Virus record (IMG/VR): IMGVR_UViG_3300045988_171260
Length of the DNA stretch: 29,802 bases
Reading direction: 5' to 3' (one strand)
Origin: a virus
Positions 10,148-10,896 of this stretch are shown here, in pieces. The translations under genes were made by a program, and so were the position numbers. Within the stretch, counting starts at the first letter, position 1. Every line of letters starts with the position of its first letter. Below the pieces are notes generated by a model. That model did not search any database, was not told the DNA's origin, and saw only the letters and a program-made list of their open reading frames with translations.

Positions 10148-10591
10148 AATATCTACCAATCCTTCCCTTTTTGATTATCGCAAGTGCTTTGCGATTGACC
10201 GACCAATGATTATGTGAACCTTGCTTTGTTTCTGTTTTTTAAGTTTAATGTCCTTCGACAAGTATATATTACTACATCTTAGCGAAAAAGTCAAATTTAT
10301 TTTTTATTGTGCAAAGTGATGAAAATTTTACATAAAAATCATAGTATTTTTGTTAAAATGTACAAATGTAGAAAAATAATGCGGATTTAGGCAGATTTTT
10401 GTGCATTTTGCTATCTTAAATATCACATATTGTGTTTCTGCGTGTCAAAAAAGGTATGATTTTTTATTAAAATTTCGTCACTTTGCACAAGGTGTAGAAA
10501 ATCTTAGCATTATTTTATTAAATTTTGTACATTTTGTACACCATGTCAAAAAATGGGATTTTTTTAATTTATTTTTTGTGCAAATTGCCTA

Positions 10592-10621
10592 TTGACAAAA
10601 AGGTGCTAGATGTGGTATAAT
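10592..10621 (+). promoter_or_regulatory. Consensus promoter TTGACA-18-TGgTATAAT. Transcript starts with the GC hairpin 10627-10648. No downstream plus-strand gene.
   Basis: ttgaca aaaaggtgctagatgtgg tataat. Preceded by a tttgtgcaaattgcc tattgaca upstream element. Confidence 0.6.
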
Positions 10622-10666
10622 AAAATTTCGGGGTGCCCCGACCCCGAACGGAATTCGTCTACCTCC

Positions 10667-10695
10667 ATTATAACACAGCCGAGCCACCTTGTCAA
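10667..10695 (-). promoter_or_regulatory. Consensus promoter TTGACA-17-TGtTATAAT, convergent with the 10592 promoter. Its transcript runs through the same hairpin and then a U-run.
   Basis: Reverse complement reads ttgaca aggtggctcggctgtgt tataat. The predicted ~45-nt RNA ends in stem ttcgggg/ccccgaa plus AUUUUAUUAUA. Confidence 0.55.
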
Positions 10696-10705
10696 GAGTT
10701 TTTTC

Positions 10706-10734
10706 AAAAAAAAAAAAAAAAAAAAAAAAAAAAA
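10706..10734. repeat. A29 homopolymer (T29 on the minus strand)
   Basis: 29 consecutive A read from the sequence, between the two convergent promoter pairs. Confidence 0.9.
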
Positions 10735-10783
10735 TGCACAAATTTTAGGATAAAAATTTTAAAAAATTTGTGCATTTTTTCTC

Positions 10784-10812
10784 TTGACAAAATGTCTCAA
10801 CTATGTTATAAT
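10784..10812 (+). promoter_or_regulatory. Consensus promoter TTGACA-17-TATAAT. Transcript starts with GC hairpin 10821-10847.
   Basis: ttgaca aaatgtctcaactatgt tataat. Upstream tttgtgcattttttctc element. Confidence 0.6.
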
Positions 10813-10849
10813 GGAAGGCTCGGCTCGCATGGGCTGCTCGCGAGCCGCT

Positions 10850-10878
10850 ATTATAACACATTTTCCGCGACTTGTCAA
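10850..10878 (-). promoter_or_regulatory. Consensus promoter TTGACA-17-TGtTATAAT, convergent with the 10784 promoter across hairpin cggctcgc/gcgagccg
   Basis: Reverse complement reads ttgaca agtcgcggaaaatgtgt tataat agcggctcgcgagcagcccatgcgagccg. Confidence 0.55.
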
Positions 10879-10896
10879 CCCCTTTTAAAAAATTTT

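Follow-up and report, generated by a model that had tools for sequence, protein, structure and literature searches.

The stretch of DNA described here (IMG/VR record IMGVR_UViG_3300045988_171260; 29,802 nt, called the window as a whole) looks like phage DNA and contains a gene-free locus in which four perfect consensus promoters, P1 to P4, are arranged face to face as two pairs, each converging on a GC-rich hairpin. Comparison with related sequences shows that this locus is two tandem copies of a module that occurs in multiple copies in the early-gene arrays of a large clade of uncultivated phages, the hosts of which are most likely Clostridia-type bacteria of the gut and rumen. One promoter of each copy belongs to a distinct class that is marked by an upstream TTTGTGCA box and directed against the early genes. 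Judged from the sequence, the module may be a boundary or insulator that acts through antisense transcription, and we put the probability of this reading at about one half.

Four perfect promoters in two convergent pairs

The locus lies in a gap between a 5′-nucleotidase-like gene (9674–10159, minus strand) and a gene encoding 68 amino acids (11018–11224, minus strand). The gap itself (10160–11017) is 858 bp long, has no genes and is 30% GC, as is the window overall (~30%). A minus-strand block of small genes, most of which have their own perfect promoter and ribosome-binding site, extends from 6.1 to 15.7 kb, and a plus-strand structural block begins at 15.8 kb. Since the flanking genes and the block around them are on the minus strand, P2 and P4 run with the gene flow and P1 and P3 run against it. 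The promoters and hairpins are as follows.

P1, 10592–10621, plus strand: perfect match to the consensus (TTGACA, 18-nt spacer, TGgTATAAT), directed against the early genes; transcription predicted to start at about 10625–10630
Hairpin A, 10627–10648, both strands: TTCGGGGT/ACCCCGAA, 8 bp with a 6-nt loop, 73% GC
P2, 10695–10667, minus strand: perfect match to the consensus, co-directional with the gene block; transcription predicted to start at about A10660
P3, 10784–10812, plus strand: perfect match to the consensus, directed against the gene block and a canonical member of the boxed class; transcription predicted to start at about 10817–10819
Hairpin B, 10821–10847, both strands: CGGCTCGC … GCGAGCCG, 8–10 bp, 78% GC
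P4, 10878–10850, minus strand: perfect promoter in the sense direction, with no box; predicted start at about 10843–10846

An initial annotation, made from the letters of the window, had placed four perfect promoters at these positions and had described them as facing each other around GC-rich hairpins in a region without genes. This description is confirmed: in our sequence reading and in a consensus scan, each of the four matches the consensus at 12 of 12 positions, and all have the extended −10 TG. The four promoters are packed into 290 bp as the pairs P1/P2 and P3/P4. Across the whole window, a regular-expression scan for TTGACA-N16-18-TATAAT finds 12 perfect promoters against a chance expectation of 0.03, taken from 200 Markov-1 simulations in which the maximum was one. 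Measured from −10 hexamer to −10 hexamer, the promoters are 45 nt apart in P1/P2 and 37 nt apart in P3/P4, and the predicted start sites are separated by ~33 and ~27 nt, respectively, with convergent transcripts that would overlap.

The predicted minus-strand RNA from P2 is ~42 nt long and ends past hairpin A and its AUUUUAUUAU tail, where the scan calls a terminator; the short RNA ending in a hairpin and U-run that had been proposed, at ~45 nt, is close to this prediction. That tail is terminator-like for the P2 RNA, and the plus strand of hairpin A has no U-tract that qualifies. The predicted start of P4 falls within the right arm of hairpin B. It had also been suggested that the plus-strand RNAs begin with a GC-rich stem; the geometry is right, and the start sites from which it is reckoned are predicted ones. 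The GC content of the hairpins (73–78%, in a gap of 30% GC) is as conspicuous as the initial annotation held it to be, and what is unusual about these hairpins is their local GC content and their recurrence, rather than their folding energy, which is in line with their base composition.

None of the four promoters is followed by a ribosome-binding site with a start codon, in agreement with the earlier view that no plausible open reading frame (ORF) stands behind any of them. The ORFs at 10401–10595, 10610–10753 and 10633–11016 on the plus strand and at 10589–10741 on the minus strand were rejected as coding, for they have no ribosome-binding sites. The plus-strand frames had been called artefacts, and the longest of the open frames across the region, 130 codons that include a poly-Lys read of an A29 run, is broken in all three close relatives. 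Searching the whole window with the Rfam 15 covariance models gave no match at the gathering threshold, with chance-level scores only (E ≥ 0.12) between 9500 and 12000, and no tRNA or tmRNA was found in the window.

A boxed class of antisense promoter–hairpin units

The class to which P1 and P3 belong was defined on 27 loci collected by way of the nucleotidase-like protein, in which all promoters matching at least 11 of 12 consensus positions were catalogued. The early arrays of these loci hold 391 distinct ordinary sense promoters with a ribosome-binding site and start codon, as well as 36 antisense and 33 sense promoters that point directly into GC-rich hairpins. Exactly 14 nt upstream of the −35, GTGCA is present in 28 of the 36 antisense hairpin promoters (30 of 36 have it within 25 nt) versus 9 of the 391 gene promoters. 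A further element, TTYGGGA, lies farther upstream in 29 of the 36 and in close to none of the other classes, and the extended −10 is found in every antisense hairpin promoter (36/36) versus 208/391 gene promoters. Convergent pairs with only a hairpin between them also occur at L013, L017, L019, L023/24 and L004/5/22 of this collection.

An independent sample was drawn by scanning IMG/VR for the box and −35 (TTTGTGCA-N6-CTM-TTGACAAA), with −10, hairpin and orientation ignored in the choice. The signature is present in at least 120 IMG/VR stretches, which come from many metagenomes and are mostly contigs between 50 and 200 kb long; these gave 118 distinct units. A perfect TATAAT stands at the right spacing in 93 of these 118, the sequence directly 3′ is at least 55% GC in 88, and a fold of −12 kcal/mol or lower lies within 48 nt in 89; a ribosome-binding site and ATG are present in only 10 of the 118. 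Relative to the local gene promoters, 70 hairpin units are antisense and 16 are sense. A convergent partner is present for 29 of the 118 units (about a quarter), and the −10 gaps in these pairs cluster at 33–39 nt (19 units), 47–49 nt and 73–74 nt, a pattern that the gaps of 37 and 45 nt in the window fit.

P1 and P3 were also recognized by a sequence-only model, R1, built from 45 diverse units with the window's own clade excluded. Over its full length, R1 matches P3 with 63.2 bits (E 3.4e-19, 10738–10823) and P1 with 56.4 bits (E 4.5e-17, 10547–10630). The match to P2 is partial (20.7 bits), its box being displaced by a T-run through an insertion; P4 scores 8.1 bits, and ordinary gene promoters score no more than 18 bits. 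In addition to the model match, P1 and P3 share the other marks of the class, namely a box that ends ~9 nt before the −35 (with GTGCA at −14), a GC hairpin at most ~10 nt after the −10, no ribosome-binding site or start codon, and an antisense orientation to the array. Their upstream elements are listed here.

P1 upstream elements, 10547–10582, plus strand: a degenerate distal element (CAAAAAATGGGAT) and an exact TTTGTGCA box at 10575–10582, 9 nt before the −35
Box dyad, 10724–10785, both strands: candidate operator, TGCACAAATTTT … AAAATTTGTGCA, with boxes at 10735–10742 and 10767–10774 (the latter being the box of P3), between the divergent P2 and P3

The head-on promoters had initially been interpreted as a transcriptional-interference switch or a sense/antisense RNA control pair. 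From that interpretation, the head-on pairs, the short overlapping transcripts and the lack of ORFs still stand, but the locus is no one-off: it is two tandem copies of a multi-copy module, with P1 and P3 as members of the boxed antisense class.

When read in the sense direction, a typical unit begins with an upstream gene and its ordinary terminator, followed by the GC hairpin, the boxed antisense promoter that faces the hairpin, the box dyad, and then a back-to-back boxed sense promoter that usually drives the next gene. A divergent promoter is present in 63 of 119 units, and 38 of these drive a ribosome-binding site with ATG. The dyad has the form TGCACAAATTT-N-AAATTTGTGCA; among 47 units with an inverted box, 35 show the fixed gap of 24–25 nt. 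The dyad of the window is an inverted repeat with fold z values of −4.1 and −4.3 on the two strands, and as an AT-rich hairpin between A and T runs it could be a bidirectional terminator. A comparison of the box by eye with sigma-54, Spo0A, CodY, ResD and Rex motifs gave nothing convincing.

The antisense RNA is predicted to start with (G)GAAAWTTCG, after which comes a stem of 8–10 GC pairs. In paired units, the complement of the partner's −10 (AUUAUA or AUUUUAU) makes a U-rich tail straight after the hairpin. The hairpins differ widely in sequence from copy to copy while the structure stays, and they are Watson–Crick symmetric; a G·U versus A·C asymmetry test for strand-specific RNA structure revealed no strand bias. 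The GC hairpins are a deliberate feature of the module. It is highly improbable that the units serve to make short GC hairpin RNAs that function by themselves, for example as decoys for a host defence or an RNA-binding factor. The very strong promoters, the short structured RNAs, the fast turnover of the hairpins between strains and the placement of the units in the immediate-early region would suit such decoys, but the copies have neither a sequence nor a loop motif in common, match nothing in Rfam and show no strand preference, and a free-standing RNA gene would not need the strong orientation bias relative to genes. Defined small-RNA genes were rejected as well, since only about one-third of the units have a terminator inside 200 nt.

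The module has no coding capacity and is not associated with any particular gene. The 88 sense ORFs found upstream of units are mutually unrelated, falling into 67 clusters, which fits a generic punctuation role; and since no gene family is tied to the units, they are unlikely to form a sense/antisense regulator dedicated to one target.

Constant promoters and changing hairpins in close relatives

Exact copies of hairpin A are present in three IMG/VR contigs of 80–97 kb. When 10540–10900 is compared with these three relatives, the four promoters, the boxes and hairpin A show no change, and the differences cluster in the initial transcribed region of P2, the P2 spacer, the A-run and hairpin B. 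The latter is an exact inversion between two of the relatives (L001 and L003), is 13 nt shorter in the third (L002) and has a substituted loop in the window, so that its palindrome survives sequence turnover within constant surrounding promoters. Conservation of the promoter–hairpin–promoter unit despite a differing hairpin sequence, which had been proposed as a check, is therefore found in related phages, and the locus is not an assembly artefact.

The inverted segment is a 30-nt palindrome between the P3 and P4 homologues (L001 6500–6545 versus L003 7020–7065, corresponding to 10818–10849 of the window). An imperfect palindrome may have flipped here, through template switching or through recombination in the stem, or the assemblies may have sampled different members of a mixed population.

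The surroundings of the two pairs also contain parts of the module, in a hub bordered as listed.

A29 homopolymer, 10706–10734, plus strand: A8 in the three closest relatives
Decayed, box-rich module copies, 10300–10560, both strands: TTTCGTCAYTTTGCAYA composite motifs at 10308–10324 (minus) and 10473–10489 (plus)
Further composite box motifs upstream of P4, 10896–10977: three, at 10902–10918, 10927–10943 and 10952–10968
Ordinary intrinsic terminator, 10977–10999, minus strand: right border of the hub; belongs to the sense gene upstream (11018–11224, minus strand)
Weaker promoter (TTGACT, 17-nt spacer, TAATAT), 10266–10294, minus strand: left side of the hub, probably serving the nucleotidase-like gene downstream (9674–10159, minus strand)

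The composite box motif has 8 matches versus 0.53 expected. The decayed stretch at 10300–10560 also holds a 51-bp direct repeat (10462–10501, 10513–10552) and near-promoters at −10549 and −10448. The U29/A29 tract pointed out in the initial annotation is indeed present but specific to this genome; with only A8 in the relatives, it does not count among the conserved elements of the module. Slippage during replication, or an error of sequencing or assembly, may account for the difference in length. Only the closest relatives share the 860-bp gap, the nucleotidase-like gene having its own promoter elsewhere, and the position and content of the hub vary between relatives.

The A-run and the dyad raise the matter of a DNA-level site, such as a transcription-activated replication origin in which firing of P2 and P3 would unwind the dyad and the A-run, with the boxes as initiator sites. 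An origin would be in keeping with the AT-rich dyad and the A-run that lie between two strong divergent promoters, with the many copies of the box and with the genes for DNA metabolism just downstream. Against it, the module is present in several copies per genome, the A-run is not conserved, the boxes on inspection fit the DnaA-box consensus TTWTNCACA poorly, there is no adjacent initiator gene, and the skew does not change at the locus beyond the effect of gene orientation. We consider an origin very unlikely.

A proposed boundary formed by antisense transcription

According to the reading we favour, the box, the perfect −35 and the extended −10 would constitute a class of promoters for the host sigma-A polymerase that fires against the early genes into a GC hairpin, while the second, inverted box would belong to the back-to-back sense promoter. 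In the window, each copy (P1 and P3) would be opposed by a perfect sense promoter (P2 and P4). Since the predicted start sites are only ~27–33 bp apart, two RNA polymerases could not hold one pair at the same time, and polymerases that do start would collide or stop at the shared hairpin, which would owe its U-rich tails to the complementary strand of the opposing −10 box. The products would be complementary hairpin RNAs of ~35–50 nt with no coding role, and the net effect a barrier to transcription passing between blocks of early cassettes. The barrier in the window would separate the cassettes of ORFans at 11–15.7 kb from the downstream nucleotidase and exonuclease genes. The conserved box dyad could allow a DNA-binding factor to switch the barrier.

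Several points weigh against such a boundary. Promoter use, start sites and termination are all predictions. The tails of hairpin B are weak U-tracts in both directions (UAUUAUAAC and UUCCAUUAUA), and the folding energies of the GC hairpins are ordinary for their composition (z ~ −0.5), with the exception of the P4 RNA (−3.4). An ordinary terminator already precedes many units, and an extra barrier is thus not obviously needed. A canonical terminator that acts in the direction of the unit lies within 200 nt in only 45 of 132 boxed units; the other 87 would make longer antisense RNAs, which favours an antisense-RNA role, at least for the unpaired units. Finally, no protein that binds the box was identified.

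The same count bears on a different explanation, in which cis-acting antisense RNAs, stabilized by the GC hairpin at their 5′ ends, shut off upstream early genes on schedule. These RNAs would pair with the 3′ parts of upstream mRNAs or send their polymerases into oncoming ones, and the pairs in the window would be degenerate units whose target gene has been lost. RNAs from the 87 units that lack a nearby terminator would reach the upstream gene; the hairpin begins a few nucleotides from the predicted 5′ end, and the conserved box dyad suggests timed regulation. In Firmicutes, 5′ stem-loops protect RNAs. But the upstream genes are mutually unrelated, the hairpins have no strand bias, and with a unit only every few kb and a separate promoter for each cassette, most early genes would escape. 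Moreover, in the window and in about a quarter of the units, the antisense RNA meets nothing more than a tiny sense RNA. We regard scheduled shut-off by such RNAs as the main rival to the boundary reading, if a rather unlikely one.

A further, more specific reading can be put forward tentatively. In it, a putative factor on the TTTGTGCA dyad would control a boundary or early-gene shut-off system that is specific to this clade, including the code-15 Phassvirus group. Once bound to the dyad, the factor would turn on the head-on polymerases and so silence or insulate whole blocks of early cassettes, with the GC hairpin serving as a symmetric stop or as a stabilizer.

Phage lineage, Phass-1 and wider distribution

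The large terminase of the window is 86% identical to that of a human-faecal 'Bacteriophage sp.' record and ~44% identical to those of Enterococcus phages H1 and EF1, Geobacillus phage E3 and phage Phass-1. Protein family libraries contain very little from this lineage: six large proteins (385–580 amino acids) of the structural block at 15814–25099, the terminase-like one included, have no Pfam match at E ≤ 0.001.

No close or distant DNA match to the region was found in cultured phages, and a query with the consensus unit matched only Phass-1 and a few metagenomic 'Bacteriophage sp.' records, leaving Phass-1 (OQ749652.1) as the only named record found with units. This phage has been assigned to a 'Caudoviricetes code 15 clade' with a host predicted among Clostridia/Eubacteriales, in a paper in which the word 'promoter' does not occur (PMC10607447). 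Genome-wide, Phass-1 has 49 promoters that match at least 11 of 12 positions, 45 of which share the minus strand with the early and middle genes. The remaining four, on the plus strand, are all of the hairpin type, and three of these are boxed antisense units, at 130.7, 132.9 and 134.9 kb, that is, within the last 6 kb adjoining the genome end as linearized by PhageTerm; two are in convergent pairs. The ordinary Phass-1 cassettes contain a stem-loop made of a G-run, a loop with the −35, and a C-run, which is the design of the PeSL elements of T4-like phages considered below.

A 'hypothetical protein' coding sequence in Phass-1, WIC39738.1 (130698–131642; L269 4180–5124), overlaps a convergent boxed pair and its GC hairpin. 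The annotated 5′ end of this gene is probably spurious.

When bacterial genomes were scanned, genuine units were found only on promoter-dense contigs within metagenome-assembled genomes, mostly binned to Clostridia (Acutalibacteraceae, Ruminococcus, Oscillospiraceae). The remaining matches do not speak for a host regulon of the box, which was rejected, as they are unrelated orthologous host promoters in Fibrobacter and Christensenella. In Fibrobacter genomes, the box and −35 signature (L150, L161 and related loci) lies upstream of one orthologous host gene, and in Christensenella-like genomes upstream of a gene whose product begins MQRIYLD and resembles NifS/IscS-type cysteine desulfurases. 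These signatures are probably coincidental orthologous promoters that form no regulon.

Comparison with known systems

The closest concept in the literature we searched is the PeSL (promoter-early stem-loop) cassette, and a boxed, antisense, multi-copy promoter–hairpin module is undescribed there. PeSLs are multi-copy elements of T4-like phages that combine an early sigma-70-consensus promoter with a GC-rich stem-loop, the position of which varies relative to the promoter and may be just downstream of the −10; they are co-directional with genes, end in the Shine–Dalgarno sequence and start codon of an ORFan, and mediate recombination in which mini-circles can form (PMC2839356, PMC4122927). The locus shares the sigma-70-consensus promoter and the stable GC-rich stem-loop, and both kinds of element are multi-copy and populate plastic regions of small ORFans, with a stem-loop that acts as a terminator or attenuator in PeSLs and is predicted to do so here. 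The ordinary cassettes of the clade come closer still, with the −35 in the loop between G-run and C-run. In contrast to PeSLs, the units here are mostly antisense, have no ribosome-binding site or start codon, are marked by the TTTGTGCA box or dyad, and are often arranged head-on in pairs with a fixed geometry. They also come from a phage lineage that is unrelated to the T4-like phages, with a terminase that resembles those of Phass-1, H1 and E3. The PeSL text consulted describes neither an antisense class nor an upstream box (PMC2839356, PMC4122927).

Alternatively, the gap might be an evolutionary graveyard, in which PeSL-type cassettes have recombined and lost their ORFs, leaving empty promoter–hairpin units and decayed copies with no dedicated function of their own. 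The early block does consist of cassettes with near-identical promoters and 5′ leaders, and the ordinary promoters both here and in Phass-1 have PeSL-like stem-loops that span the −35. Confinement of the 860-bp gap to the closest relatives, with a separate promoter for the nucleotidase-like gene elsewhere, points the same way; the decayed box and −35 copies at 10300–10560 would be explained, and PeSLs are documented drivers of modular shuffling (PMC2839356). Random loss of ORFs, however, would not yield a fixed geometry of 33–39 nt across many unrelated hairpins, and it leaves unexplained both the class-specific upstream box at a fixed position and the four promoters that are invariant amid turnover of the sequence between them. 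We regard this account as unlikely.

In coliphages 186 (pR/pL) and P2 (Pe/Pc), each of the face-to-face promoters drives an operon, lytic in one direction and lysogenic in the other, and defined repressors set the state. The locus resembles these switches in having strong convergent promoters tens of bp apart, with overlapping predicted transcripts and probable mutual occlusion or collision, but neither promoter here has an operon behind it, the starts are closer together (~27–33 bp), a hairpin lies between them, and there are many copies per genome. A general framework for transcriptional interference has been given elsewhere (PMC5001618, PMC6593788).

Type I toxin–antitoxin systems were considered and rejected. 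The convergent RNAs of pAD1 par (RNA I/RNA II) and of SPβ bsrG/SR4 share a bidirectional terminator and need a small hydrophobic toxin ORF. Convergent promoters whose transcripts overlap, or in the module would overlap, at a shared terminator hairpin are common to these systems and the module; in the latter, by contrast, there is no ORF, a peptide would not fit into the 37–45 nt between the −10 boxes, and no single family accounts for the upstream genes, which are unrelated.

Finally, lambda oop and P22 sar are short non-coding RNAs that are made from a strong promoter facing an oncoming transcription unit, each being single-copy with a defined target, whereas the units described here are multi-copy and generic and often face only another tiny RNA. 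No feature supporting N4-type hairpin promoters or CRISPR-repeat mimicry was seen, in an assessment that included no systematic test of either. Since the defining features of PeSLs, of interference switches and of type I toxin–antitoxin systems are lacking, the module is set apart from each of them.

Other features of the window

All ten exact TTTGTGCA boxes of the window sit in three hubs. Besides the one described above, the R1 model marks two further gene-free hubs, at 6884–6945 (minus strand) and ~14232–14529. In the former, the perfect promoter at 6913 (minus strand) is a partial match to the boxed class (35.6 bits) and faces a GC hairpin (GGTCCGAGT…ACTCGGATC), beyond which a non-coding leader of ~300 nt extends to the gene at 6135–6530; the closest relatives have a full convergent pair in its place (L004 +6794/−6887). 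The hub at 14281–14529 holds at least six units of box and TTGACA, most without a −10, and in the unit at 14523–14560 a GC hairpin directly follows the −35 in place of the spacer. Around it, at 13840–14560, a stretch of ~400 bp that contains (ATA)n repeats exceeds 85% AT and lies downstream of a perfect promoter at 14267 (minus strand).

Identical copies of promoter and leader precede different genes at 7625–7653/7907–7935 and at 8647–8675/9438–9466, and repeated cassettes of this kind could mediate PeSL-style recombination. A different gene-free region, 4950–6100, contains nested palindromes (ggtataattttaatacc …) and (TATAT)n runs, followed by ~850 nt of extreme purine (G/A) strand bias with a GC skew of +0.6 to +0.7. 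This region might mark the terminus of the genome, serve in packaging or encode a long non-coding RNA.

Implications

The programming of early transcription in large uncultivated gut phages is very poorly understood, and the module is a conserved element of it that is easy to recognize. It is spread across more than 100 large viral contigs and had gone unnoticed in a published genome, where it lies partly under a 'hypothetical protein' annotation. The PeSL idea is thereby extended from T4-like phages to an unrelated lineage, with an antisense class in addition. If the module does act as a boundary or in shut-off, it would amount to a compact insulator of natural origin made from head-on promoters, and it would bear on models of phage gene timing, on genome annotation and possibly, as a part for Gram-positive hosts, on synthetic biology.

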